The translations under genes were made by a program, and so were the position numbers. Under the pieces are notes generated by a model. It was not told the DNA's origin and did no database searches. It saw only the letters and a list, made by a program, of their open reading frames with translations. From an uncultured Pseudoxanthomonas sp. (lineage in GTDB: Bacteria > Pseudomonadota > Gammaproteobacteria > Xanthomonadales > Xanthomonadaceae), in assembly GCA_964425695.1 (NCBI GenBank), contig CAYRNF010000001.1, positions 395,093 to 459,092 on the forward strand: DNA of 64,000 bases. The letters run 5' to 3'. Numbering within the stretch: the first letter of the stretch is position 1; each line of letters starts with the position of its first letter. Positions 5-55,487 of the stretch are shown in pieces.

Positions 5-2206
5 ATGCGCCGCTTCGCCGCGCTGTACCGCCGCCTGGACCGCAGCACCGCCACGCTGGACAAGCGCGCGGCGCTGGTCGAGTACTTCCGCGACGCGCCG
101 CCGCGCGATGCGGCGTGGGCGCTGTGGCTGCTCACCGGCGGCAAGGTGACCGCGGCGGTGGCCGGCGCCCGGGGAAAGGCCGCCAAGGCGCGCATCGCCA
201 ACACCCGCGAGCTGCGCACGTGGATCGCCCAGGAGTCCGCCACGCCGGACTGGCTGGTGGACGCCAGCTACGACCAGGTGGGCGATCTGGCCGAAACCCT
301 GGCGCTGCTGCTGGACGATCCGGTGCAGCGCGGCGAGGACATCGGCCTGGCGGACTGGATCGAGGGCCGCCTGGCGCCGCTGGCCCACGCGGACGAAGAC
401 ACCCGCCGCGCGGTGGTGGTGGGCGCCTGGCGCAGCCTGGCCTTCGACGAGCGCCTGGTGTTCAACAAGCTGCTCACCGGCGCGCTGCGCGTGGGCGTGT
501 CGCAGGGGCTGGTGCAGCAGGCGCTGGCCGAGCTGTCGGGCCTGGACATCGCGTTGATCGCGCAGCGCATGCTCGGTGCGTGGACGCCGTCGGAGGCGTT
601 CGTGGCGGGGCTGCTCTCGCACGAGGCGCAGCCCGGCGATGCGGCTTCGCCGTTTCCGTTTTTCCTGGCCTCGCCGCTGGAAACCGCACTGCGCGCCGGC
701 GACGACGGCGAGCCGCCCTCGCCCAACGATCCCGACGCCGTGGCGCGCGCGCTGGGCGACATCGGCGACTGGAAGCTGGAGTGGAAGTGGGACGGCATCC
801 GCGTGCAGCTGATCCGCCGCAACGGCGGCGTGGCCCTGTGGTCGCGCGGCGAGGAGCGCATGGACGGCCGCTTCCCGGAAATCGAGACCGCGCTGGCCGC
901 GCTGCCGCGCGACGCGGTGATCGACGGCGAACTGCTGGCCTGGCGCGAAGGCGAGGCCGCACCGCTCCCGTTCACCGCGCTGCAGACCCGCATCCAGCGC
1001 CGCAAGCCGGGGCCGAAGGCGCTGGCCGACACGCCGGTGCGCGTGCTTGCCTACGACCTGCTGGAGCTCGACGGCGAAGACCTGCGCGAGCGGCCGCTGG
1101 TGCAGCGGCGGGCGCTGCTGGAACGACTCCTGGCCGCCACGGGTGATGCGACAGAAGGTGATCCGTCACTCCCGCGCAGGCGGGAGTCCAGGGACGTTGC
1201 GCTTGAAGTGCATGGCGCTGCGGATCACGAAGGATCAAAGGCCGCGTCCATGGGCTCCCGCCTTCGCGGGGATGACGGTGTGGGACAGGACGATCTGTCG
1301 CTGTCCATGAATGAACACCCCGGCGGGCTGTTGAGAGCCGCCTCCCGCGTTCGCGTGGATGATGGTGAAAAAGAAAGTGAATCGTCACTCCCGCGCAGGC
1401 GGGAGCCCAAGGACGTTGGGCTTCCAGTGGATGGCGAAGCGCATCACGGAGAATCAGAGGGAACGTCCATGGATCCCCGCCTTCGCGGGGATGACGTTGG
1501 GGAAGAAGTTGATCCGTCACTCGCGCGCAGGCGGGAGCCCATGGACGTCGGGCTTGAAGTGGATCGTGACACGCATCATGGAGGATCAGAGGCGACGTCC
1601 ATGGGTCCCCGCGTTCGCGGGAATGACGGCATAACGGTGCCGTCGCAGTCGACTTCGGCTTCGCAACGCATCGCGCTGTCCCCGCACATCCATGCCGCCT
1701 CATGGACCGACGCTGCACAGCTGCGCGAGGATTCCCGCACGCGCGGCGTGGAAGGGCTGATGCTCAAGCGTGCGGATTCGCCGTATCGCCACGGCCGCAA
1801 GCGCGGCGACTGGTGGAAGTGGAAGGTGGATCCGCTGACCATCGACGCGGTACTGCTGTATGCGCAGAGCGGCCACGGCCGGCGCAGCACGCTGTACACC
1901 GACTACACCTTCGGCCTGTGGGACGGCGATGCGCTGGTGCCGGTGGCCAAGGCGTACTCGGGGCTGGACGACAAGGAAATCCTGCAGCTGGACCGCTGGA
2001 TCCGTGCGCACACCACCGAACGCTTCGGGCCGGTGCGTGCGGTGCAGCACGGGCAGGTGTTCGAGCTCGGCTTCGAAGCGGTGAATCGCTCCAGCCGCCA
2101 CAAGTCGGGCATCGCGGTGCGGTTCCCGCGGATCCTGCGCTGGCGCCACGACAAGCCGGTGGCCGAAGCCGACGCGCTGTCCACGCTGCGGGCGCTGGCA
2201 CGATGA
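5..2206 (+). CDS. ATP-dependent DNA ligase (ligase-associated DNA damage response type), carrying an in-frame ~470-bp repeat insertion
   Basis: N-terminus MRRFAALYRRLDRSTATLDKRAALVEYF is typical of this ligase family. Adenylation motif I is KxDG (EWKWDGIRVQ) and motif V-like is EGLMLKR. The stop overlaps the helicase start (ATGA). Length is 733 aa against ~550 expected because of the repeat insertion. Confidence 0.85.
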   Translation: MRRFAALYRRLDRSTATLDKRAALVEYFRDAPPRDAAWALWLLTGGKVTAAVAGARGKAAKARIANTRELRTWIAQESATPDWLVDASYDQVGDLAETLALLLDDPVQRGEDIGLADWIEGRLAPLAHADEDTRRAVVVGAWRSLAFDERLVFNKLLTGALRVGVSQGLVQQALAELSGLDIALIAQRMLGAWTPSEAFVAGLLSHEAQPGDAASPFPFFLASPLETALRAGDDGEPPSPNDPDAVARALGDIGDWKLEWKWDGIRVQLIRRNGGVALWSRGEERMDGRFPEIETALAALPRDAVIDGELLAWREGEAAPLPFTALQTRIQRRKPGPKALADTPVRVLAYDLLELDGEDLRERPLVQRRALLERLLAATGDATEGDPSLPRRRESRDVALEVHGAADHEGSKAASMGSRLRGDDGVGQDDLSLSMNEHPGGLLRAASRVRVDDGEKESESSLPRRREPKDVGLPVDGEAHHGESEGTSMDPRLRGDDVGEEVDPSLARRREPMDVGLEVDRDTHHGGSEATSMGPRVRGNDGITVPSQSTSASQRIALSPHIHAASWTDAAQLREDSRTRGVEGLMLKRADSPYRHGRKRGDWWKWKVDPLTIDAVLLYAQSGHGRRSTLYTDYTFGLWDGDALVPVAKAYSGLDDKEILQLDRWIRAHTTERFGPVRAVQHGQVFELGFEAVNRSSRHKSGIAVRFPRILRWRHDKPVAEADALSTLRALAR
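1160..1630. repeat. Tandem array (3 full and 1 partial copies) of a ~117-bp palindromic REP/MITE-like element lying inside the ligase CDS
   Basis: Units start 'gatccgtcactcccgcgcaggcgggag' and end 'cccgccttcgcggggatgacg'. There is an internal inverted repeat ccatggacgtcg...cgacgtccatgg. Each copy encodes SLPRRREPxDVGLxVDGxxHHGxSExTSMxPRxRGDD. Confidence 0.7.
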
Positions 2207-4758
2207 CGCCGCCTGCCGCAGCGCAGCCGGCGGACGCTGCGCCGGGCGGCGCGGGCGTGCCGCGCGCGCGGCGCCGCCACGACGCGCCCCTGGCGGACTG
2301 GTTCGGTGCGCGCGGCTGGACGCCCGCACCGTTCCAGCGCGAGGCGTGGCGCCGCTACCGCAACGGCGAGTCCGGCCTGGTGGTCACGCCCACCGGCAGC
2401 GGCAAGACGCTGGCGGTGTTCGGCGGGCCGCTGCTGGAAGCGCTGGCCGCCGGTGAACACACGACGCCGCCGCCGAAGACGAAGCGCGGCACGCCCGTGA
2501 CCGCACGCACCCGCGTGCTGTGGATCACGCCGCTGCGCGCGCTGGCCCACGACACGGCGCGCGCGCTGCGCGATCCGATCGAGACGCTGGGCCTGCCGTG
2601 GACGGTCGCGATGCGCACCGGCGACGCCAGCGCCCGTGACCGACGCCTCGCCCGGCAGGGCCGCGCCGACGTGCTGGTGATCACGCCCGAATCGCTGGCG
2701 CTGCTGCTGAGCTATCCGGATACGCAGGCGCAGCTCGCGGGGCTGCGCACGGTGGTGGTGGACGAGTGGCACGAACTGCTGGGCAACAAGCGCGGCGTAC
2801 TGCTGCAACTGTGCCTGGCGCGGCTGCGCGCGTGGTCGCCCGCGCTGCGCACCTGGGGCGTGTCGGCCACGCTGGGCAACCTGGCACAGGCGCGCGACGT
2901 GCTGCTGCCGCATGTGCCGGAGGCGGCGATCGTGCAGGCCGCACGCCCGCGTTCGCTGGTGCTCGAAACGCTGCTTCCGGAGGAAGGCGAACGCTTTCCG
3001 TGGGCGGGCCACCTGGGCCTGTCGCAGGTGCAGCGCGTGGTCGCTCGCCTGCAGCACGCGCGCAGCACGCTGCTGTTCGCGAACACGCGTGCGCAGGCCG
3101 AGCTGTGGCATCGCGCGCTGTCGTCGGTGTGGCTGGACGATCCGGCCACGCTCGCCCTGCACCACGGCTCGCTGGATCCCGCGCTGCGCCGCGCCGCGGA
3201 ACAGGGCCTGCGCGACGGTTCGGTGCGCTGCGTCGTGGCGACTTCAAGCCTGGACCTGGGCGTGGATTTCCCGGCCGTGGACCAGGTGCTGCAGATCGGC
3301 AGCCCCAAGGGCATGGCGCGGCTGCTGCAGCGCGCCGGGCGCGCCCGCCATCGGCCGGGCGAAGCCGGGCACATCGTGTGCGTGCCCACCCATGCGCTGG
3401 AACTGGCCGAGTACGCGGCCGCGCGTGAGGCCCTGCGCGAAGGCGAGGTGGAAGCGCGCCCGCCACCGACGCTGTCGCTGGACGTGCTGGCGCAGCACTG
3501 CATCACCCTGGCGCTGGGCGGCGGCTTCAACGCCGACGCGCTGCTGGCGGAAGTGCGCGGCACGCACGCGTTCGCCGCGCTGACCGACGTGCAGTGGGCG
3601 GCGGTGCTGGCCTTCATCGTGCAGGGCGGGCAGGCGCTGCAGCACTATCCGGACTTCCGCCGCGTGGTGCGCGATGGCGACGGCCTGTATCGCGTGCACG
3701 ACCGGCGCATCGCGTTCCGCCACCGGCTGTCCATCGGCACCATCGCCAGCGACGGGTCGATGCAGGTCAAGCTGCTCAAGGGCGGCGGGCTGGGCAGCGT
3801 GGAGGAAAGCTTCGCCGCGCGGCTGCGTCCCGGCGACCGCTTCCAGTTCGCGGGCCGCACGCTGGAGCTGGTGCAGCTCAAGGAGATGACCGCCTACGTC
3901 CGCGTGTCCAAACGTGCCGATGGCACGGTGCCGCGGTGGCAGGGCGGGCGCATGCCCATGTCCACCGCGCTGGGCGCGCGCGTCGCCGCGGTGCTGGCCG
4001 CGCCGCCGGACGTGCCGGAGCTGCGCGCGCTGGCGCCGCTGCGCGAGCTGCAGCAGCGCCTGTCCGCGCTGCCGGGCGCGCAGGTGCTGCTGGCGGAATT
4101 CCTGAAGACGCGCGAGGGGTGGCACCTGTTCCTGTATCCGTTCGCCGGGCGCGCCGTGCACGAAGGGTTGGCCGCGCTTCTGGCGCTGCGCTGGAGCCGG
4201 CGTGCGCCGAACAGCTTCGCCTTCGCGGTGAACGACTACGGCCTGGCCCTGACCGCACAGGCCGAGACGGAAATCGATGCCGACACGCTGCGCGCGCTGC
4301 TGTCGCCCGACGCGCTGGCCGACGATCTTGCCGAAGGCCTCAACCTGACCGAGCTCGCCCGCCGCCAGTTCCGCGAGGTCGCGCGCGTCGCCGGGCTGCT
4401 GCCGCCGTCGCTGCCCGGGCGCGCCGCGCGCAGCCTGCGCCAGCTGCAGGCCTCCAGCGGCCTGCTGTTCGACGTGCTGCGCCAGCACGATCCCGACCAC
4501 CTGCTGCTGCAGCAGGCCGCGCGCGAGGTGTTCGAGGCGCAACTCGACGTGCAGGCGCTGCGCGCGGTGCTGGAGCGCTGCCACGCGCAGGCGCTGCACC
4601 TGCACCATCCCGCCACGCTCACGCCGCTGGCGTTCCCGCTGTGGGCCGAGTCCATGCGCGGCACGCTCAGCAGCGAGGACTGGAAGACCCGCGTGGAACG
4701 CGCGGCACGGCAGCTGGATGCGCGCCATGCGCGGCGCCGGGGCGGACGCCGTGGGTGA
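2203..4758 (+). CDS. Lhr-like DEXH-box helicase (ligase-associated DNA damage response helicase)
   Basis: Walker A VVTPTGSGKTL and DEWH box VVVDEWHEL. A helicase C-terminal domain is followed by the Lhr-core C-terminal extension. The start ATG overlaps the ligase stop. Confidence 0.85.
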   Translation: MTPPAAAQPADAAPGGAGVPRARRRHDAPLADWFGARGWTPAPFQREAWRRYRNGESGLVVTPTGSGKTLAVFGGPLLEALAAGEHTTPPPKTKRGTPVTARTRVLWITPLRALAHDTARALRDPIETLGLPWTVAMRTGDASARDRRLARQGRADVLVITPESLALLLSYPDTQAQLAGLRTVVVDEWHELLGNKRGVLLQLCLARLRAWSPALRTWGVSATLGNLAQARDVLLPHVPEAAIVQAARPRSLVLETLLPEEGERFPWAGHLGLSQVQRVVARLQHARSTLLFANTRAQAELWHRALSSVWLDDPATLALHHGSLDPALRRAAEQGLRDGSVRCVVATSSLDLGVDFPAVDQVLQIGSPKGMARLLQRAGRARHRPGEAGHIVCVPTHALELAEYAAAREALREGEVEARPPPTLSLDVLAQHCITLALGGGFNADALLAEVRGTHAFAALTDVQWAAVLAFIVQGGQALQHYPDFRRVVRDGDGLYRVHDRRIAFRHRLSIGTIASDGSMQVKLLKGGGLGSVEESFAARLRPGDRFQFAGRTLELVQLKEMTAYVRVSKRADGTVPRWQGGRMPMSTALGARVAAVLAAPPDVPELRALAPLRELQQRLSALPGAQVLLAEFLKTREGWHLFLYPFAGRAVHEGLAALLALRWSRRAPNSFAFAVNDYGLALTAQAETEIDADTLRALLSPDALADDLAEGLNLTELARRQFREVARVAGLLPPSLPGRAARSLRQLQASSGLLFDVLRQHDPDHLLLQQAAREVFEAQLDVQALRAVLERCHAQALHLHHPATLTPLAFPLWAESMRGTLSSEDWKTRVERAARQLDARHARRRGGRRG

Positions 4759-5404
4759 GACGCTGCCGATCCTGCTGGCGGGCGAGCCGGTGGTGCTGCT
4801 CGCCGACCGCGCCCTGTACTGGCCGGCGCGCGGGCGCCTGCTGATCGCCGATTTGCACCTGGGCAAGGGCGACGTGTTCCGCGCCGCCGGCATCCCCGTG
4901 CCCACCGGCGGCACCGCGCACGACCTGGCGCGGCTGGATGTGCTGCTGCGCGCAACCGGCGCGCATGCGCTGTGGATCCTGGGCGACTTCCTGCACGGGC
5001 CGCGCCATGCCGGCGTGGATGCGGCGTGGCGCGCGTTGCGCGACGCGCACCCGCACGTGCACATGGCGGTGGTGCGCGGCAACCACGACCGCCGCTTCGA
5101 CCGCGACGCGGCGGGCGTGGACGAGGTGCCGGAAGGCCTGGTGGACGGTCCGTTCGCGTTCCGCCACGCACCGCACGACGAGCCCGCCGCGGGCGCCACC
5201 GGCGACGCGCCGCACCTGCTGTGCGGGCACGTGCATCCGGTGCTGCGCATCCCGGGCACCGGTGCGCACCCGCTGTTCTGGCTGCAGCCCGGCTGCACCG
5301 TGCTGCCTGCGTTCTCGCGCTTCACCGGCGGCTACCGGGTGTCGCCTGCGGCCTGTGCGGGCAGCGTGGTCTGCGACGGGCGCGCGCTGCTGCGCCTGCG
5401 CTGA
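4718..5404 (+). CDS. pdeM: Metallophosphoesterase PdeM (ligase-associated DNA damage response endonuclease)
   Basis: Calcineurin-like motifs LIADLHLGKG, GDFLHG, VRGNHDR and CGHVHP. It overlaps the helicase 3' end and is co-oriented in the ligase/helicase module. Confidence 0.8.
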   Translation: MRAMRGAGADAVGETLPILLAGEPVVLLADRALYWPARGRLLIADLHLGKGDVFRAAGIPVPTGGTAHDLARLDVLLRATGAHALWILGDFLHGPRHAGVDAAWRALRDAHPHVHMAVVRGNHDRRFDRDAAGVDEVPEGLVDGPFAFRHAPHDEPAAGATGDAPHLLCGHVHPVLRIPGTGAHPLFWLQPGCTVLPAFSRFTGGYRVSPAACAGSVVCDGRALLRLR

Positions 5405-9253: not shown

Positions 9254-11401
9254 TCAGTCGGCGTCGATCATGCGGAACGTGCCGGTGCTCGGCTGGCCGT
9301 GTTCGAAGCTCATGGACAGCATGTCCTCGATCACCGAACCGCCGTGGTTATCGTCGGACAGCACGCCGAAGACCTCGTCCGGCGTCTTGCACACCGCCAG
9401 TCGTTCCTGGGTCGAGGACCACCACGGGGTCTCGAGCCCGCTGTCCAGGTTGTCCAGCTTCTCCTGGCCCTGCAGCAACACCACCGATTCGCGCGCGCGA
9501 TCGCGCATCTCCAGCAGCTGCTGGCTGGTGAACTGCATCTGCGCATGCTGCGGGCCGTCGAACTCGCGGTTGACCTGGTCGTTGTTGTACGACGCGTTGA
9601 GGTACGAGGCCAGCACCGGATCCAGGTTGGCGCGTACGATGCTCCACTGCGTCGTGGCCGGGTCGAGGTCGCCGTCCGCGCCCAGCGTGCCGCGCACGTC
9701 GGTGGTCACGCCGCTGGTGGACGTGTAGGTGTTGGCGTATTCCACCGTGCCGTCCGCCCAGGTCGTCTGGGTGATCGTGCCGTTGGCGTCGCTGGAGCCG
9801 CCCAGGCTCAGTCCGCCCACCTGCAGGCCGATGAAGCTCGCGTACTCGTGCGAGAAGATCTCGGTAGTGCCGGACTGCTGCACGCCGGGCGGCGACCACT
9901 CGGGCACGCGGCCGCCGCTGACGAAGGCCTGGTATGCGGCCTGGCCTTCGGCGGTGGACAGGTCGATGCGCGCGATCCGCATGTCGCGCGTCTCCATGCT
10001 CAGGTCGCTGCCCACGCCCACCGCCAGCGTGCCCTGCCGGCCCAGGCCCAGGAAGGCGCTGTTCTCCACGGTGTCCACCGGGCCGGAGTACACCTCCACG
10101 ATCGAACCCTCGCCACGGGTGATGCCGAAGCCCTGGCCCGACAGCTCGGTGTGGGTGCCGCCCACGGTGAACGCCTTGTAGTTGGCCTCGAACGTGCTGC
10201 CCTGCAGCGTCTGCCCGCGCATCAGCACGGACGTGCCCGGCGCCATGGCCAGCGGATCGAGCGGGTTGGGCAGGCCGTCGGTGTTGCCCGCATCCAGCAG
10301 CGCGCCCTGTTGCGGCGTGACCACCGCCTCGTAGCTCAGGCGCGCGCCCTCGAACGTGCCGTAGGAACCGGACACCGGCAGCCCCTTCAGCACGCGCTGC
10401 AGGGCGGGAATGTCGTCCACGTAGTTGCGCGCGTTGCGGATCGCGCCGTCGAGCTGGTTGAAGCCGGGCACGCCGTCCAACCGGGTGCTGGCCCAGTCCG
10501 GCAGGTTCTGCAGCCGGTCGCTCCACTTGTACAGGCTCTGCGGCAGCGAGCGGCTCAGGTCGAAGGTGGTGCCCGACTGGGTCTGCACCGATGCCTCGAA
10601 CTGCTGGGTCTGGCGGAAGTTCACGCCGGTCTGCACGTCGCCCAGCTCGACCTTGCCGATCACGTCCACGTTGTACTGCACGTTCGGACCGACCAGGTTG
10701 GGCGTGCCCACGCCCGCGCCGGTGTGGAAGCTCACCTGCGAACCGGGATTGACCAGCATGCCGAGCATGTCGTCGGGCATGGTGCCCAGCAGCGCGCGGC
10801 CGGCATCGAGCAGTTCCGGCGAGGCGTCCGCCGGCAGCTGCACGCCGACCAGCTCCAGCGCGCCGCGCACCTGCTCCGGCGTGAACCGGCCCACGTCCGT
10901 GCCGCCGGCGGTGGTGCCGGGCGTGAGATAGGCCGGGATCCGGTCGGGATTCGCCTGGGCCTCGGTCACCACGCGGCGCAGTTCGGCCACGTAGGGGCTG
11001 GATTCGTAGGTGGTGAGCGCCTGCTCGTACTCGTGGTTAGCGGTGGTGCCGTTCAGGCCGCTGTCCGTGTAGTCGCTGCGCTGCGGGGCGAAGCGGTCCA
11101 GCGCGGCCTGCGCGGCCTCTGCGCGTGTCGCGTTGAACACGCCCACGCGCTGCGCGTGCACCACCTCCTGGGTGTCCATCGGCATCCCGGACAGGTCGGC
11201 GCGGCTGGGCACCGGCAGCGCCTGCAACGCCGTCACCGCCTCGGCGGGCGTGCGTGCCTGTTCCACGCCGGGCATGGGCTGCGGTTCGGGCGTGGGATCC
11301 ACGTGGCGCGCGATGTAGCTCTCGCGGATCGCCGCCTGGTCCTCGGGCGGCAGGTGGTGGTAGGTCTGCGAGTTGACGCCGTAGATCGTATTGCCGCTCA
11401 T
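9254..11401 (-). CDS. Large hypothetical protein (715 aa) with no signal peptide and no TM; Gly/Thr/Ser-rich
   Basis: This is a single long ORF. The upstream part of the raw ORF overlaps the neighbouring hydrolase, so the start was placed at MSGNTIYGVNSQ. No recognisable catalytic motif was seen by eye. Confidence 0.55.
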   Translation of the reverse strand: MSGNTIYGVNSQTYHHLPPEDQAAIRESYIARHVDPTPEPQPMPGVEQARTPAEAVTALQALPVPSRADLSGMPMDTQEVVHAQRVGVFNATRAEAAQAALDRFAPQRSDYTDSGLNGTTANHEYEQALTTYESSPYVAELRRVVTEAQANPDRIPAYLTPGTTAGGTDVGRFTPEQVRGALELVGVQLPADASPELLDAGRALLGTMPDDMLGMLVNPGSQVSFHTGAGVGTPNLVGPNVQYNVDVIGKVELGDVQTGVNFRQTQQFEASVQTQSGTTFDLSRSLPQSLYKWSDRLQNLPDWASTRLDGVPGFNQLDGAIRNARNYVDDIPALQRVLKGLPVSGSYGTFEGARLSYEAVVTPQQGALLDAGNTDGLPNPLDPLAMAPGTSVLMRGQTLQGSTFEANYKAFTVGGTHTELSGQGFGITRGEGSIVEVYSGPVDTVENSAFLGLGRQGTLAVGVGSDLSMETRDMRIARIDLSTAEGQAAYQAFVSGGRVPEWSPPGVQQSGTTEIFSHEYASFIGLQVGGLSLGGSSDANGTITQTTWADGTVEYANTYTSTSGVTTDVRGTLGADGDLDPATTQWSIVRANLDPVLASYLNASYNNDQVNREFDGPQHAQMQFTSQQLLEMRDRARESVVLLQGQEKLDNLDSGLETPWWSSTQERLAVCKTPDEVFGVLSDDNHGGSVIEDMLSMSFEHGQPSTGTFRMIDAD

Positions 11402-11492
11402 GCGCGTGGTCCGTGCGGGTATCCCCGGAGATGCTAGGCAGGCGCGTCGCGCGCTGCCATCCGGGGCGCACCCTAGGGTCGTCCGCGCTGCA

Positions 11493-12734
11493 TCACTCGT
11501 CGCGGGCGAGCCGCTCCTCGATCGCGGTGAACGCCGAACGCGTCCCGGGCGCCGCGTCGGGCATGCCGGTGGCGAAATAGACCACGCCGGTGCCGGTGGC
11601 CGGATCCACCCACAGCCCGCCCTTGAGTCCGTACGCATCGCCGCTGTGCCCGATGCGCGCCACGCCGTCGCCGAACGGATCGTCGCGGCAGCCCGGCGCA
11701 CGCGTGGCCAGGGTCTGCACGGCCAGCCCGTAGCTGCAGAAGAAGCCGCCGTCGCCGCCTTCGCCGGTCACGCCGTTGCGGCCGTCGTAGGTCCACGCGG
11801 GCGCGACGAGGGTGCGCACCGACGCGGGCGTGAGCAGCCGCACGCCATCCAGCTCGCCTTCGCCCAGCAGCAGCCGGCCGATCCGGGCCAGGCCGTTGGC
11901 GGAAATGCGCAGCCCGCCCTGGGGCGAGAACAGGGCGCCATTGGCGCCGGCCTTCCAGCGCGACAGGTCGCAGCTGCCGTCGCGCGCGGGGTTGGTGGGG
12001 CACGCGGGCGCCCGGCCGCGATGGTCGTCGCGCACCGGCTGGCGCTGCGCGTCGTACTGCACCACCGCGCGCGCCGCGGCCGCCTCGCTGCAGGCGGCCC
12101 AGTTGAAGCAGGCGTCCAGCTGCAGCGGCGCCAGCACCAGCCGCTGCATGAGCAGGTCGAAGCGTTCGCCCGTGGCGCGTTCCATCGCCGCGGCGACCAG
12201 CGGGAAATTGAGGTTGGTGTAGCGGAAGAACGTACCGGGGGCGTGCTCGGCGTCCCACGCGCGCGGGTCGTCCAGGATGTCCTTGAGCTCGCCGTCCAGC
12301 GGCACCGCGTAGTAGCCCGCCGCGTCGGTGAGCCCCGACCGGTGCGACAGCAGCAGGCGCAGCGTGACCGGCGTGTCCGGGTAGCGCGGATGGCGCAGCG
12401 TGTAGCCGAGCAGGGGCGAGACGTCCGCATCCAGGTCCAGCGTGCCGGCTTCGACCAGGCGCATCACGCCGATGGCGACGACCAGCTTGGAGATCGAGGC
12501 GATGCGCACCGGGTCGTCGGCGGTCAGCGCACGCTGCGCGGCGAGATCCGCATGGCCCTGCAGGCGCGTGGCGGTCACGCCGTTGCGGTCGAAGGCGATG
12601 CGCGCGCTGGCGACCGGGGTGTCGCGGGCCGCCGCCGTGCCGACGGCAGGCGCCGGGACCTGCGCCACGGGAACCGGCGCATGTGCGCAGGCGGCAAGGG
12701 ACAGCAGAAGCGGAACAAGGCTGCGCGCGGGCAT
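11493..12734 (-). CDS. Serine hydrolase, beta-lactamase family (lipoprotein)
   Basis: Signal [19 protein letters not shown]. SxxK motif SISK. Shows beta-lactamase/transpeptidase fold hallmarks. Confidence 0.75.
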
Positions 12735-17094: not shown

Positions 17095-17435
17095 GCTGCG
17101 CGATCGCTGCGCGCGTCAGTGGCGCCATTTCGCGCTCAGGCCGTCCTTTTTCGAAGAGCGGAGACACGCAAATCTCCCCCGGCCCCTCTTTTTCAAAGAG
17201 GGGAGACAAGCTGCAGCCTTCGCACATCCTGTGTGGCGCGCGGCTCGCCGCCTTGCCTCCCCCTTCGAAGAAGGGGAAAAGAGGGGGGCTCGCTCTTGCG
17301 CGAGGGGTCACGCATTCGAAGGGGGGAGACAAGCGGCCGCCTTCGCGGACATTGCGTCGCGAGCGGCTCGCCGCTCTGCCTCCCCCTTTGAAAAAGGGGG
17401 ATTGAGGGGGATTTGCTCTTGCGTGAGGGGCCACG
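17095..17435. repeat. Intergenic array (~2.5 copies) of a ~125-bp palindromic repeat between the ABC ATPase and permease genes
   Basis: Recurring 'ggggagacaagc(g/t)gc(c/a)gccttcgc...gcgagcggctcgccg(c/t)ctgcctcccccttYgaaRaagggg' units with G/C-rich stem-loops. Confidence 0.6.
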
Positions 17436-17436
17436 C

Positions 17437-18198
17437 ATGAACCTGCACGCCATCCAGGCCATCTACCGCTTCGAAATGGCGCGCACGTTCCGCACCCTGT
17501 TCGAGTCGATCCTGTCGCCGGTGCTGTCGACCTCGCTGTACTTCATCGTGTTCGGCGCGGCTATCGGCTCGCGCATGGGCGAGGTGGGCGGGGTGAGCTA
17601 CGGCGCCTTCATCATCCCCGGCCTGATCATGCTGTCGCTGCTCAACGAGAGCATCTCCAACGCTTCGTTTGGTATCTACATGCCCAAGTGGGCCGGCACC
17701 ATCTACGAGCTGCTGTCCGCGCCGGTGTCGTGGGTGGAAACGGTCGTCGGCTACGTGGGCGCGGCGGCGACCAAGTCGCTGATGCTCGGCGTGCTGATCC
17801 TGGTCACCGCGCGCTTCTTCGTGGACTACGAGATCCAGCACCCGCTGTGGGTGCTGTGCTTCCTGGTGCTGACCGCGCTGAGCTTCAGCCTGTTCGGCTT
17901 CATCATCGGGCTGTGGGCGGACAGCTTCCAGCGCCTGCAGATCATTCCGCTGCTGGTGATGACGCCGCTGACCTTCCTGGGCGGCGCGTTCTATTCCATC
18001 GACATGTTGCCCGAGCCGTGGCGCACGGCGAGCCTGTTCAACCCGGTGGTCTACCTGATCAGCGGCATGCGCTGGAGCTTCTACGGGCAGAGCGACGTGG
18101 ACGTGGCGATCAGCGCCGCGGCCATCGTGGGTTTCCTGCTGGCGTGCCTGGGCACGGTGTACTGGATCTTCCGTACCGGCTGGCGCCTGAAGCAGTAG
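17437..18198 (+). CDS. ABC-2 type transporter permease
   Basis: [21 protein letters not shown]... with six TM segments, matching the ABC-2 family topology. Confidence 0.8.
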
Positions 18199-32941: not shown

Positions 32942-33015
32942 GCGTTGGAGCGGGAATCGAACCCGCGACCGTCGGATTGAACGTCCGATGCTCTAACCAT
33001 CTGAGCTATCCAGTG
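32942..33015 (-). tRNA. tRNA-like gene (74 nt), anticodon undetermined
   Basis: Canonical D arm (TAGCTCAGATGGTTAGAGC) and T arm (GCGGGTTCGATTCCCGC). The anticodon stem is TCGGA/TCCGA but the loop CGTTCAA has G33, and the acceptor shows 2 mismatches by hand folding. Confidence 0.5.
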
Positions 33016-50095: not shown

Positions 50096-51907
50096 ATGGC
50101 CGAGTTGAAGGAAGCGCGCGTCCCGGACATCGGCGACTACAGCGACGTCCCGGTGATCGAGGTGCTGGTGGCGGTGGGCGACACCGTGGCCAAGGACCAG
50201 GGCCTGGTGACGCTGGAATCCGACAAGACCACGCTGGAAGTGCCGTCCTCGGTCGCCGGCGTGGTGCGCGAACTCAAGGTCAAGCTGGGCGACACGCTGT
50301 CCGAAGGGGCGGTGGTGGCGCTGATCGAGGCGGCCGACGCTGGCGATGCCTCCGCTTCGCCCCCTTCCGAGAAAGGGGCGGCGGGGGATGCGACGCCCGA
50401 ACGCCAGGCGCAAATCCCCCCTGGCCCCCCTCCTTCGAAGGGGGGTGATCAGCAGGCTGCTGGGGCCGCGTCCACGCCTCCGGCTGGAACCGCAGGCGGC
50501 CTGCAGGAAGCGCGCGTCCCGGATATCGGCGGCTACAGCGACGTGCCGGTGATCGAGGTGCTGGTGGCGGTGGGCGACACGGTGGCCAAGGACCAGGGGC
50601 TGGTCACGCTGGAATCCGACAAGGCCACCATGGAGGTGCCGTCCTCGGTGGCAGGCGTGGTGCGCGAGCTGAAGGTCAAGGTGGGCGACAGCCTGTCCGA
50701 AGGCGGCCTGGTGGCCCTGATCGAACCCGCCGCGGCCGCGCCGCGCGCCCAGCCGGAAGCGGCAGCGAAGCAAACGCGCGCCTCCGAAACCGGGACCCAG
50801 GTCGAACCCGTACGGGTGGATGCCCGCCCGGACAACATCGCCCGGGCCTCGATGGACGCCGCGGCCGGCGGCCGGGCCAGCCCCGACGCCGCCGCCGCCC
50901 CGATGGGCGCCGGACTGCCACCGGTGCGCTTTGAAGCCGCCGCCGTGCTGCCCGACAAGGTGCCCTACGCCAGCCCCGCGGTGCGCCTGTTCGCGCGCGA
51001 ACTGGGCGTGGACCTGCTGAAGGTCGCCGGAAGCGCGCGCGGCGGACGGATCACCCGCGAGGACGTGCAGCAGTTCGTCAAGGGCGCGCTGGCCGGCGGT
51101 GCGGGCGCTGCGACGGGCGCCGCAGCGCCGGTGGCCGGCGGCGGTGGGCTGAACCTGCTGCCGTGGCCCAAGGTGGACTTCGCCAAGTTCGGCGAGATCG
51201 AGGTCACGCCGCTGTCGCGGATCAAGAAGATCTCCGGCGCCAACCTGGCCCGCAACTGGGCCATGATCCCGCACGTCACCCAGCACGACGATGCCGACAT
51301 CACCGATCTCGAGGCGCTGCGCGTTGCGCTCAACGCCGAGAACGAGAAGTCCAGCCGTGCCGGTCAACAGCCGGGCATCAAGCTCACCATGCTCGCCTTC
51401 CTGATGAAGGCCAGCGCCGCGGCGCTGAAGCGCTACCCCGAATTCAACGCCTCGCTCGACGCCTCCGGCGAGAACCTCACCCTCAAGAAGTACGTGCACA
51501 TCGGCTTCGCCGCCGACACGCCCAACGGGCTGGTGGTACCGGTGGTGCGCGACGTGGACCGCAAGGGCGTCAACCAGATCGCGCAGGAAACCGGCGAGCT
51601 GGCGAAGAAGGCGCGCGACGGCAAGCTCGGCCCGGCGGACATGTCCGGCGGCTGTTTCAGCATCAGTTCGCTCGGCGGCATCGGCGGCACCGCGTTCACG
51701 CCGATCGTCAACGCGCCGGAAGTGGCGATCCTGGGCGTGAGCAAGGCGGCGATGAAGCCGGTCTGGAACGGCGAAGCCTTCCAGCCGCGCCTGGTGCTGC
51801 CGCTGTCGCTGAGCTATGACCACCGGGTGATCGACGGCGCCGCGGCGGCGCGCTTCACCGCCTATCTCGCGCAGCTGCTCGCCGACATGCGCCGCGTCCT
51901 GCTGTAA
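50096..51907 (+). CDS. aceF: Pyruvate dehydrogenase complex dihydrolipoyllysine-residue acetyltransferase (E2), two lipoyl domains
   Basis: Two lipoyl motifs LESDKTTLEVPS and LESDKATMEVPS, an E3-binding domain, and the catalytic DHRVIDGA. Confidence 0.9.
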   Translation: MAELKEARVPDIGDYSDVPVIEVLVAVGDTVAKDQGLVTLESDKTTLEVPSSVAGVVRELKVKLGDTLSEGAVVALIEAADAGDASASPPSEKGAAGDATPERQAQIPPGPPPSKGGDQQAAGAASTPPAGTAGGLQEARVPDIGGYSDVPVIEVLVAVGDTVAKDQGLVTLESDKATMEVPSSVAGVVRELKVKVGDSLSEGGLVALIEPAAAAPRAQPEAAAKQTRASETGTQVEPVRVDARPDNIARASMDAAAGGRASPDAAAAPMGAGLPPVRFEAAAVLPDKVPYASPAVRLFARELGVDLLKVAGSARGGRITREDVQQFVKGALAGGAGAATGAAAPVAGGGGLNLLPWPKVDFAKFGEIEVTPLSRIKKISGANLARNWAMIPHVTQHDDADITDLEALRVALNAENEKSSRAGQQPGIKLTMLAFLMKASAAALKRYPEFNASLDASGENLTLKKYVHIGFAADTPNGLVVPVVRDVDRKGVNQIAQETGELAKKARDGKLGPADMSGGCFSISSLGGIGGTAFTPIVNAPEVAILGVSKAAMKPVWNGEAFQPRLVLPLSLSYDHRVIDGAAAARFTAYLAQLLADMRRVLL

Positions 51908-53101: not shown

Positions 53102-54904
53102 ATGGCCGGAACCATCGAAGTGAAGGTGCCCGACATCGGCGACTACGACGCGGTGCCGGTGATCGAGGTGCTGGTGCGGGTGGGCGACACCGTCGCCAAG
53201 GACCAGGGCCTGGTCACGCTGGAATCGGACAAGGCGACGATGGAAGTGCCTTCGTCCGCGGCCGGCGTGGTCAGGGAGCTGAAGGTCAAGGTGGGCGACA
53301 CCCTGTCCGAAGGGGCGGTGGTGGCGGTGCTGGAGAGCGCGGACACGGGGCATGCAGCCGCGCCTGCCGCAGGCGCCTCGCCCGCTTCGACGCAGGCCGC
53401 GCCGGACAAGCCGGCCCCACCGCTGGCGCCGTCGCTCGCGAAACCGGCCGAGCCAGCGGCGCAGGGCGCACCCGCCAGCGGGCGCAAGGCGGACGTGGAA
53501 TGTCGCATCGTCGTGCTCGGCTCCGGCCCCGGCGGCTACACGGCGGCGTTCCGCGCCGCCGATCTCGGGCTGGATACCGTGCTGATCGAGCGCTACGCGT
53601 CGCTGGGCGGGGTGTGCCTCAACGTGGGCTGCATCCCGTCCAAGGCGCTGCTGCATTCGGCGGCGGTGATCGACGAAGCCGAGCACGCATCCGACTACGG
53701 CATCACCTTCGGCAAGCCGAAGATCGCGCTGGATGCCCTGCGTGCGTACAAGGACAAGGTGGTGGGGCAGCTCACCAAGGGCCTGGCCGGCATGGCCAAA
53801 CAGCGCAAGGTGCGCGTGGTGCAGGGCACCGGCCGCTTCGTGTCGCCGCACGAGATCGAGGTGCAGGGCGCGGACGGCAACACGCAGCTGGTGAAGTTCG
53901 AGCAGTGCATCATCGCCGCCGGGTCGCAGGCGCTGAAGCTGCCCGGCTTTCCCTGGGACGATCCGCGCATCATGGATTCCACCGACGCGCTGGAACTGGC
54001 GGAGGTGCCGAAGTCGCTGCTGGTGGTGGGCGGCGGCATCATCGGGTTGGAGATGGCGACGGTGTATCGCGCGCTCGGCAGCACGGTCACGGTGGTCGAA
54101 CTGGCCGACCAGCTCATGCCCGGCGCCGACAGGGACCTGGTCAAGCCGCTGGCCGATCGCCTGAAGAAGCAGGGCGTATCGGTGCACTTGAAAACGAAGG
54201 TGACCGAAGCGAGGGCTGGCAAGAAGGGCATCGACGTCGCCTTCGACGGCGAGAGCATTCCCCAAGCGAAGCAGTACGACCGCGTGCTGGTCGCCGTGGG
54301 CCGTGCGCCGAACGGCGCGAAGATCGGTGCCGACAAGGCCGGCGTGCGCGTCACCGAGCGCGGCTTCATCGAGGTGGATGCGCAGATGCGCACCAACGTG
54401 CCGCACATCTTCGCCATCGGCGATCTTGTCGGCCAGCCGATGCTGGCGCACAAGGCGACGCACGAAGGCAAGCTCGCGGCCGAGGTGGCCGCCGGCGAGA
54501 AGAAGGAATGGGTGGCGCGGGTGATCCCGTCGGTGGCCTACACCGACCCGGAAATCGCGTGGGTCGGCATCACCGAGACCGAAGCCAAGGCCAAGGGCCT
54601 GAAGGTGGGCATGGGCAAGTTCCCGTGGGCGGCCAGCGGTCGCGCCATCGGCATCGGCCGCACCGAGGGCTTCACCAAGCTTCTGTTCGACGAGGCCAGC
54701 CACCGCATCGTGGGTGCCGGCATCGTCGGCGTGCATGCCGGCGACCTGATCGCCGAAGCCGCGCTGGCGATCGAGATGGGCGCCGAAGTGGCCGACATCG
54801 GCCACACCATCCATCCGCACCCCACCCTGAGCGAATCGGTGGCGATGGCCGCCGAGGTCTACGACGGCACGATCACCGACCTGTATCTGCCGAAAAAGAA
54901 GTAG
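53102..54904 (+). CDS. lpdA: Dihydrolipoyl dehydrogenase (E3) with an N-terminal lipoyl domain
   Basis: Lipoyl LESDKATMEVPSS, FAD-binding VLGSGPGGY, redox-active GGVCLNVGCIPSK, and a C-terminal dimerisation HAHPTLSE. Confidence 0.9.
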   Translation: MAGTIEVKVPDIGDYDAVPVIEVLVRVGDTVAKDQGLVTLESDKATMEVPSSAAGVVRELKVKVGDTLSEGAVVAVLESADTGHAAAPAAGASPASTQAAPDKPAPPLAPSLAKPAEPAAQGAPASGRKADVECRIVVLGSGPGGYTAAFRAADLGLDTVLIERYASLGGVCLNVGCIPSKALLHSAAVIDEAEHASDYGITFGKPKIALDALRAYKDKVVGQLTKGLAGMAKQRKVRVVQGTGRFVSPHEIEVQGADGNTQLVKFEQCIIAAGSQALKLPGFPWDDPRIMDSTDALELAEVPKSLLVVGGGIIGLEMATVYRALGSTVTVVELADQLMPGADRDLVKPLADRLKKQGVSVHLKTKVTEARAGKKGIDVAFDGESIPQAKQYDRVLVAVGRAPNGAKIGADKAGVRVTERGFIEVDAQMRTNVPHIFAIGDLVGQPMLAHKATHEGKLAAEVAAGEKKEWVARVIPSVAYTDPEIAWVGITETEAKAKGLKVGMGKFPWAASGRAIGIGRTEGFTKLLFDEASHRIVGAGIVGVHAGDLIAEAALAIEMGAEVADIGHTIHPHPTLSESVAMAAEVYDGTITDLYLPKKK

Positions 54905-55487
54905 CCCGCCAGGTCCAGGCAGGGTCGCGCACAGGCGCGCTCCGCAGCAAGGCGCCGGGCAGGGCGGCCGGGCCGGGGGTGCGGTCGATCGTGTCGGCCC
55001 ACGCCGCAACGCACGGCCACAGGAATCCTCGTCATCCCCGCGCAGGCGGGATCCACCGATGCCAGGCGACATCCAGGCGATGGCACGGGGCGATAGGACG
55101 CCCCTCCGTCCAGGCCCCGCGCGCCCCGCCATGCGGGTGGCGCATGCCGCGGGCGCGGGCCGCGCGGCCGCGTCGGCCAACCGCATTCGCTCCACGCGCT
55201 CCTGCGCACGCAGCGATCCGCGCGAACGATCCTCGCCCTCGCCGTCGCGCCCGCACTTCCGCAGGTGTCGCACGAGCACGCCTGCGCGCAAACCGCTGCT
55301 GCAGGGCAGCATCACGTTCGCCGGCTTCGCGCACTGCATCACACCCGCCCGCGGGAACGCGCCGGCGCGCCCGGGTTGCGTGCCCCGTGGGCGGGTGCAG
55401 CGCGCCAAGGGTTTGCCCCAGCTGGACGCCTGCGCCGCGCCCCCCTTATCCAGTCCCGACAGGGGCTTCGAAGCAAAGGGGACACGA

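Follow-up and report, generated by a model that had tools for sequence, protein, structure and literature searches.

GTAG-tagged repetitive extragenic palindromes (REPs) form the doublets known as REPINs, which are mobilized by IS200/IS605-like tyrosine transposases (RAYTs). CGTC-1 REPs, in turn, are defined by a CGTC tag (TGTC or CCTC being allowed), an 8-bp stem, a 4-nt loop, and a short tail that is mostly CCA, and the first and second stem positions are "almost invariably" complementary A-T pairs (Di Nocera, De Gregorio, and Rocco 2013, BMC Genomics 14:522; PMC3733652). According to the same study, CGTC-1 is identical to dRS3 of Neisseria and to RPE-6, a Rickettsia palindromic element (RPE) of Rickettsia conorii, is found for the most part in inverted dimers, and lacks a transposase of its own, with no RAYT found to be flanked by CGTC REPs. 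That study also described intragenic CGTC-tagged REPs, many of which lie in genes for DNA replication or repair, and found that intragenic REP clusters code for 43 to 82 aa; examples are an 81-aa CGTC-1 cluster in dnaE2 of S. wittichii, which encodes the peptide SFPRKRES...DSRFRENDG, the R. conorii peptide motif SFPRKRES...DSRFRGND, and GTAG REPs in the ATP-dependent ligase of Opitutus terrae (PMC3733652). In Neisseria, the NIME arrays consist of dRS3 (ATTCCC-N8-GGGAAT) flanking 50- to 150-bp RS segments between genes, and the 2007 statement that such arrays are Neisseria specific (PMC1797815) has already been overtaken by the 2013 study and by Chenal et al. (2025, Nat Commun 16:2388; PMC11893778). 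The latter authors described the NTS, CGTCATTCCCGCGMAVGCGGGAATCYRG, a longer form of dRS3 that is bound as a single-stranded DNA (ssDNA) hairpin, and cut just upstream, by the 94-aa GIY-YIG nuclease SsnA; ssnA genes are flanked by the motif, cognate ssn genes being of the single-domain GIY-YIG type (cd10448) and typically flanked by it as well, and SsnA lowers transformation with NTS-bearing DNA in Neisseria; the partner proposed for these REPs is a GIY-YIG nuclease and not a tyrosine transposase (PMC11893778). Here, we describe a 64,000-nt stretch of DNA from an uncultured Pseudoxanthomonas sp. (contig CAYRNF010000001.1; referred to as the window), in which a gene for an ATP-dependent DNA ligase contains REPs of this type. 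Very probably, these REPs constitute an in-frame, tandemly amplified array of CGTC-1/NTS-type dimers whose translation adds a neutral, disordered loop to a functional ligase.

In a profile search, the 733-aa product of the ligase gene scored above the cut-offs of NF006701 (691.7 bits; cut-off, 543) and of TIGR04120 (587.6 bits; cut-off, 400), the profile named "cisplatin damage response ATP-dependent DNA ligase," and Pfam identified the DNA_ligase_A_N, _M, and _C domains. The ligase profile match is broken into two parts that cover aa 1 to 380 and aa 552 to 731. Alignment with orthologues confirmed an insertion between these parts: the distance from LRERP to LRE is 44 aa in most of 120 homologues and 216 aa in the query, and the extra block, which begins after Q382 and extends over aa 383 to 555, comprises 172 aa instead of the ~157 aa of the original prediction. 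The segment is missing from more than 100 orthologues, and solved archaeal and human ligases align on either side of the insert with no counterpart to it. Among six related loci (L001 to L006), the syntenic L003 and L006 (protein identity of 89% over aligned columns) have just 6 to 15 extra residues at the site, and in their DNA, LLAA... runs almost straight into RIALSP. Judging from these alignments, the segment is an insertion and not ancestral sequence.

The insertion is made up of repeats, as detected by two repeat finders that agree with each other. Tandem Repeats Finder gave a period of 132 nt, and a repeat search gave a 159-nt direct-repeat family with members at 1144, 1363, and 1495 as well as three long inverted repeats at 1163-1278, 1383-1496, and 1514-1629. 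Together with the open reading frame and the profile scores, these results bear out the original prediction that repeats are embedded in a 733-aa ATP-dependent DNA ligase. The inverted repeats correspond to imperfect hairpins (1163-1279, 1382-1497, and 1514-1629) with arms of 35 to 44 nt that are 80 to 84% complementary; folded as RNA, they have energies of −79, −59.8, and −68.8 kcal/mol with z-scores of −7.4, −4.4, and −5.3, respectively, against shuffles. The predicted terminal inverted repeats are present, and their terminus motifs exceed chance, with 4 to 5 matches in the window versus 0.00 in 100 shuffles. An internal perfect palindrome had been ascribed to each copy; it is real in the last one, in which ccatggacgtcg at 1539-1550 faces cgacgtccatgg at 1593-1604.

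Alignment of successive 132-nt windows revealed four tandem units with a similarity of 72 to 81% (Table 1). Three of the units consist of a 116- to 117-nt hairpin formed by two inverted REPs plus a 15- to 16-nt spacer, which together amount to 132 nt, or 44 codons. Thus, the previously proposed size of ~117 bp fits the hairpin and not the repeating unit, and a 39-codon unit cannot be what preserves the frame, as 116 is not a multiple of three. Rather, the frame is kept because the period of 132 nt and the length of the one shortened unit, 87 nt, are both multiples of three. The shortened unit is the copy that had been counted as partial beside three full ones; the three full copies stand, and the "partial" one is a full fourth unit (1292-1378) minus 45 nt. 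The deletion appears as a clean 45-column alignment gap that is also present in L002 and is, therefore, old. Because the 159-nt direct repeat takes in the spacers, whole units were duplicated, and separate insertion of each copy is ruled out. The insert is stop-free in the frame of the gene and in one reverse frame, and the second forward frame is open across each full hairpin. Accordingly, the claim that the element stays open in the gene frame is correct; this property is less special than supposed, with two of the three forward frames being stop-free per hairpin. An assembly artefact was ruled out by the same architecture in independent NCBI, Logan, and JGI assemblies. Nor do the termini and spacing of the array appear to fit an integron attC site or a CRISPR repeat.

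Table 1. Coordinates of the ligase gene, its repeat array, and related features (window coordinates unless a locus is named)
Feature	Position	Strand	Basis or remark
Array-bearing gene: ATP-dependent DNA ligase (733 aa) of the ligase-associated DNA damage response operon	5-2206	+	TIGR04120/NF006701, Pfam
Ligase-associated DEXH-box (Lhr-like) helicase	2203-4758	+	Overlaps ligase stop; TIGR04121, 1061.7 bits (cut-off, 850)
PdeM	~4724-5400		After helicase; TIGR04123, 165.3 bits (cut-off, 150)
Inserted segment versus orthologues, aa 383-555, ~172 aa	1151-1669	+	Homologue alignment, AlphaFold, GC3
Unit 1, 132 nt	1160-1291	+	Hairpin dimer 1163-1279 plus spacer
Unit 2, 87 nt	1292-1378	+	Left REP lost by 45-nt in-frame deletion; degenerate right REP 1342-1365 kept
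Unit 3, 132 nt	1379-1510	+	Hairpin dimer 1382-1497 plus spacer
Unit 4, 132 nt	1511-1642	+	Hairpin dimer 1514-1629 plus spacer; perfect 12-nt inner palindrome
Left REP, unit 1	1164-1191	+	CGTC-ACTCCCGC-GCAG-GCGGGAGT-CCAG; fits SRM string; 2 mismatches to Neisseria NTS
Right REP, unit 1	1250-1277	-	CGTCATCCCCGCGAAGGCGGGAGCCCAT; fits SRM string
Left REP, unit 3	1383-1410	+	4 mismatches to NTS; fails SRM string at last position
Right REP, unit 3	1469-1496	-	Fits SRM string
Left REP, unit 4	1515-1542	+	CGTCACTCGCGCGCAGGCGGGAGCCCAT; one stem mismatch
Right REP, unit 4	1601-1628	-	CGTCATTCCCGCGAACGCGGGGACCCAT; fits SRM string
Solo intergenic REP	55030-55056	+	CGTCATCCCCGCGCAGGCGGGATCCAC; ~125 nt past stop of ORF 53102-54904; only family member outside array in 64 kb
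Arrays compared	1160-1642 (window); 11156-11638 (L001)		
GTAG-tagged REPs in ligase loop, L127	4235-4320		
GTAG-tagged REPs in ligase loop, L128	4225-4470		
GTAG-tagged REPs in ligase loop, L129	4195-4270		
IcmF-like fused isobutyryl-CoA mutase, Luteimonas cellulosilyticus (L024)			In-frame REP dimer; Pfam
BNR/Ycf48-like repeat protein, Steroidobacter metagenome-assembled genome (MAG) (L070)			In-frame REP dimer; Pfam
Type I HsdS subunit, Methylomonas MAG (L090)			In-frame REP dimer; Pfam
Type ISP restriction-modification enzyme, Gallionella MAG (L108)			In-frame REP dimer; Pfam

The REPs of the array have the tag, stem, loop, and tail of CGTC-1. All six full REPs open with a CGTC tag on their own strand, while the degenerate seventh has CATC; the 8-bp stem and the 4-nt loop (GCAG, GAAG, or GAAC) are present, as in ACTCCCGC-GCAG-GCGGGAGT, and the stem is followed in every full REP by a CCA tail (CCAG, CCAA, or CCAT). 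The right-hand REPs have AT...AT at the stem ends (ATCCCCGC...GCGGGGAT). The left-hand REPs have AC...GT and, thus, differ from the CGTC-1 consensus in that the second pair of the stem is a compensated C-G and not T-A. Similarly, the hairpin core CGTCACTCCCGCGCAGGCGGGAGTCCAG is one compensated stem pair apart from the Neisseria NTS, this pair accounting for the two positions at which the first REP differs from the NTS. With two mismatches for this REP (1164-1191) and three to four for the others, none of the REPs is within the published NTS threshold of at most one mismatch (PMC11893778). The broader Ssn-related motif (SRM) string of the same study, HGTCWYN(0-2)YYVSBRHN(0-5)WNVSBRGN(0-2)RNCYNB, gave five matches in the window, i.e., four of the seven array REPs and the solo REP at 55030, whereas 30 dinucleotide shuffles gave 0.47 on average and never more than 2.

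Copies of the family are widely dispersed. The exact 25-nt terminus GTCAYTCCCGCGCAGGCGGGAGYCC was found in at least 120 stretches of genome contigs from Alpha-, Beta-, and Gammaproteobacteria, Desulfobacterota, Planctomycetota, Chloroflexota, Verrucomicrobiota, Zixibacteria, and Bdellovibrionota and is, among the matches listed, common to genomes of at least 8 phyla; within the 120 listed stretches, it recurs 9 times in Planctomycetes syqfu and 12 times in Phycisphaeraceae NAT22. Such conservation of a noncoding sequence between phyla is consistent with horizontal spread or with a protein partner that these genomes have in common. In a sample of 122 copies, 93 were inverted dimers of 57 to 140 nt. 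Closer to the host, CGTC-1 copies are dispersed in the related genera Luteimonas, Lysobacter, Thermomonas, and Noviluteimonas, and the inner arm TCCAWGGACGTT is common to the units in the window and to copies in Lysobacter concretionis, Luteimonas cellulosilyticus, and Thermomonas. By tag, stem, loop, and tail, the array REPs belong to the CGTC-1 family and, hence, to dRS3/NTS, and the REP/MITE-type element of the original prediction can be given this identity.

Compared to the intragenic CGTC-1 copies described in 2013 (PMC3733652), the ligase array is likewise read in the same frame, shares tag, stem, loop, and tail, is built of inverted dimers, the arrangement of most family members (with 20- to 100-nt spacers), and belongs to a family found in many phyla. 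It differs from them in that it encodes 172 aa instead of 43 to 82 aa, i.e., about twice the largest cluster, and in that its dimer-plus-spacer units have been amplified regularly in tandem. The host is a gammaproteobacterium (Lysobacteraceae), whereas CGTC repeats are said to predominate in Alphaproteobacteria (PMC3733652). Intragenic REPs in repair genes have been known since 2013, and the ligase array is an unusually large example of this described phenomenon; new here are the host gene, the taxon, the approximately doubled length, and the regular tandem amplification. As far as the literature shows, it is the longest REP-encoded stretch reported within a conserved enzyme.

The array also resembles NIME arrays (PMC1797815) in that clustered REPs alternate with spacers of lower GC content. 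Unlike the dRS3/NTS arrays of Neisseria, it is intragenic and not intergenic, and none of its REPs contains an exact ATTCCC-N8-GGGAAT, the nearest sequence being ATTCCC-N8-GGGGAC at 1605-1624 (minus strand); identity with NIME was, therefore, rejected. With RPEs, the array has in common the in-frame insertion of a palindromic element that adds a peptide, with the same peptide motif, to a conserved protein. By sequence comparison, it is RPE-like in that it is absent from orthologues, leaves the frame unbroken, and resides in an otherwise conserved protein; this likeness rests on the equation of RPE-6 with CGTC-1 (PMC3733652) and on the peptide motif. It departs from RPEs in that the hosts are free-living and GC-rich and not reduced and AT-rich, and in that four units form a tandem array in place of single elements or dimers. 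As in REPINs, two inverted REPs make one long hairpin, and GTAG REPs occupy the same ligase loop in three Luteimonas-like genomes (see below); unlike in REPINs, the tag is CGTC and not GTAG.

The insert lies inside the adenylation domain with motifs IIIa and IV on either side, after a helix formed by aa 365 to 384 and before the strand at aa 556 to 558 that precedes motif IV, as originally predicted. Also in agreement with that prediction, KWDG (aa 261 to 264) and EGLMLK (aa 583 to 588) are intact on both sides of the insert and occupy invariant or nearly invariant alignment columns. In the orthologue alignment, every invariant residue of the family, including K261-W-D-G and E583-G-L-M-L-K, is kept. 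In an AlphaFold2 model based on a 71-sequence alignment, aa 383 to 549 have a predicted local distance difference test (pLDDT) score of <50 and no secondary structure, with ten-residue block means of 26 to 31 over most of the insert. The remaining ligase is mostly well modelled (block means of up to 97) except for short low-confidence stretches at aa 215 to 224 and 624 to 630, and both halves fold into the normal domain. The inserted peptide (SLPRRRE...SM.PRLRGDDG) is charged and of low complexity. Thus, it is probably a disordered surface loop, as far as the model predicts, which together with the selection on the flanks favors the earlier suggestion that the ligase tolerates the insert.

To compare the regimes of selection, we used Nei-Gojobori estimates of the ratio of nonsynonymous to synonymous substitution rates (dN/dS) between element-bearing lineages. 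This ratio was 0.04 to 0.2 in the ligase flanks, with one exception of 0.40 in the left flank between the window and L001 that is based on the low count of 24 substitutions, and 0.75 to 1.0 in the insert. Because the flank ratios are low and the motifs are kept while the insert approaches neutrality, we conclude that the ligase is maintained by selection and that the inserted peptide drifts. The insert has a GC content of 0.63 overall and of 0.61 at third codon positions (GC3), compared with GC3 values of 0.94 and 0.88 for its two flanks. By both dN/dS and composition, the insert is neutral and foreign. Downstream of the ligase gene, the next genes encode a helicase and PdeM, and the ligase gene is, therefore, part of the usual ligase-Lhr damage-response operon. 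Profile scores, adenylation motifs, and operon all identify the protein as an ATP-dependent DNA ligase of TIGR04120/NF006701; its nearest named orthologues are from Luteimonas species.

The array is present in five independent assemblies that represent at least three lineages. L001, which encodes a 94% identical protein, has the same four units as the window, L002 has three units, and L004 and L005 each combine a single full dimer with fragments in differing mosaics (~2 units); hence, unit counts across relatives are 4, 3, ~2, or 0, and every variant is in frame. Thus, one 132-nt unit was gained or lost between L002 and the window/L001 lineage. Based on the central 60 nt of the hairpins, unit 1 of the window shares 93% identity with the third full hairpin of L001 but only 85% with the hairpin at the matching position. 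Between the second full hairpins (1382-1497 in the window), identity is 95%, and the last hairpin of the window (1514-1629) has no close partner in this comparison. The nearness of unit 1 to the third hairpin of L001 shows that units have changed places between these two genomes and indicates exchange or conversion of units, through gene conversion or recombination inside the array. A metagenome scan for the left junction of the array using GATGCGACAGAARGTGA, a 17-mer that is too short for the collection, returned at least 120 chance matches, none beside a REP.

The same loop contains other inserts elsewhere. Three other Luteimonas-like ligases (P0012, P0032, and P0043) have unrelated inserts of 43 to 103 aa at the position of Q382, and the DNA of these inserts contains GTAG-tagged REPs, as in the L127 dimer GTAGGAGCGGCGTCAGCCGCGAGC...GCTCGCGGCTGACGCCGCTCCTA. 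Two unrelated REP superfamilies have, therefore, hit one ligase loop, which is a recurrent landing or tolerance site. Variable loops occur at three places in the ligase family, near Q107, Q233, and Q382. In homologues P0015, P0038, P0063, P0109, and P0112, inserts of up to 42 aa were seen in the Q233 loop and of up to 54 aa in the Q107 loop, including the low-complexity run GFGFGFGFGPGPGPGPGPG in P0112. Outside ligases, 4 of the 122 sampled CGTC-1 copies are in frame within Pfam-confirmed proteins (Table 1).

These data support the following scenario. A CGTC-1 REP in the form of an inverted dimer with an ~116-nt hairpin would have inserted into a surface loop that is permissive for insertions, within the nucleotidyltransferase domain. 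Tandem amplification of the dimer plus spacer (132 nt, 44 codons) would then have produced the four units, with unequal recombination or slippage during replication as the most likely mechanism; afterwards, one unit lost 45 nt, and shuffling or conversion took place among the units. With no stop in two of the three forward frames and with unit lengths that are multiples of three, the reading frame is not interrupted, and translation of the array most likely yields a disordered loop of ~172 residues. The ligase is under purifying selection, which would remove any frame-breaking variant, and would remain functional; the inserted peptide is selectively neutral. Three observations weigh against this explanation. 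The disorder is deduced solely from low AlphaFold confidence; no covariation was found for the hairpin beyond the built-in complementarity of its arms (double changes in 2 of 39 pairs; covariation term, +0.46); and the element is sparse, with one other CGTC-1 copy in the 64 kb and no family member within the 10-kb flanks of L001 to L006, such that the first copy could have arrived via recombination and not transposition.

An alternative that we hold to be unlikely is that the array acts at the level of nucleic acids, either as a set of Ssn nuclease sites that limit replacement of the repair operon by recombination or as mRNA hairpins that modulate the exonuclease-ligase-helicase-PdeM operon. 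By analogy with the action of SsnA on NTS ssDNA in Neisseria (PMC11893778), a GIY-YIG Ssn enzyme might bind each REP in the form of a single-stranded hairpin and cleave immediately upstream of it. Consistent with this idea, the array REPs fit the SRM string, the hairpins are very stable as RNA, many intragenic REPs reside in replication and repair genes (PMC3733652), and the association of gene and motif is reproduced in our sample: in L083 (Planctomycetes bacterium syqfu, CP087563.1), a gene for a 97-aa single-domain GIY-YIG protein (4205-4498; PF01541, E = 6e-16) is flanked by complete hairpin dimers at 4040-4121 and 4546-4627, which is the NTS-ssn-NTS arrangement published in 2025, and a 63% identical GIY-YIG homologue lies at 4619-4900 in L090 (Methylomonas MAG), 1.2 kb from its REP copy. 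However, tblastn with E values of up to 10 identified no Ssn homologue in the window or in L001 to L006, the best NTS match is outside the published threshold, and the close relatives L003 and L006 do without the array. Such a role would also be compatible with read-through of the array as a neutral loop. It is quite unlikely that the REPs form a working Ssn/hairpin site cluster that controls the repair operon or that they target repair genes through their mode of spread. If the former were true, ssDNA exposure during repair, replication stress, or transformation would lead to site-specific cutting and, in turn, to control of recombination or expression; if the latter were true, the two REP superfamilies in one loop and the intragenic excess in repair genes would reflect targeting and not mere tolerance.

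The peptide itself could be an adaptive disordered module that the ligase has recruited, for instance, as a tether or a region for interactions, and its maintenance in frame in the five assemblies and its composition would fit such a role. We consider this very unlikely given the contrast between the dN/dS of the insert and that of the flanks, the foreign codon usage, the lack of the insert in nearly all orthologues, and the use of unrelated GTAG REP peptides to fill the same loop in other lineages; moreover, the sequence is fully accounted for by a repeat family that is mostly intergenic and noncoding. An insertion of 172 aa in the adenylation domain between motifs IIIa and IV might also have inactivated the ligase, as the original prediction allowed, leaving a pseudogene that is still open. 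This is highly improbable because purifying selection acts on the flanks between insert-bearing lineages (the single higher ratio being based on few substitutions), all invariant residues are kept, every array variant is in frame, the translationally coupled helicase and PdeM operon is intact, and the two halves are modelled as a normal domain. Lastly, a tandem array of similar units with a copy number that varies among relatives would suit a contingency locus in which gain or loss of units toggles the ligase. Such built-in phase variation, which had also been predicted, is extremely improbable: slippage by units of 132 or 87 nt cannot shift the frame, the closest pair, i.e., the window and L001, has the same number of units, and differences in copy number appear only across synonymous divergences (dS) of ~0.07 to 0.4.

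Beyond the array, an Rfam search over positions 1000 to 1800 gave no match at gathering score, the best being spurious miRNA and mraW matches of 24 to 31 bits. A tRNA gene at 32942-33015 (minus strand) is the sole Rfam match above the gathering score in the window. A second intergenic repeat at 17192-17437 consists of two tandem 123-nt units that are 80% identical and contain the palindrome CCTCCCCCTT(C/T)GAA(G/A)AAGGGG; it lies just 5′ of an ORF that starts at ~17438, and a third, diverged copy of the palindrome is present at 50427-50447 (minus strand).

The ligase array reveals no new mechanism; it extends intragenic CGTC-1/NTS-type repeats to the Lysobacteraceae. Such inserts give rise to a split profile match and a longer protein and should, therefore, be recognized by annotators. 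The seven REP sites, on both strands and within 480 nt, provide a substrate for testing Ssn-type nucleases on chromosomal genes beyond Neisseria. Finally, the locus represents a natural experiment in the conversion of noncoding hairpin repeats into protein sequence, in which one loop is empty, contains ~2, 3, or 4 units, or is filled by a second REP family, all in genes that are still under purifying selection.

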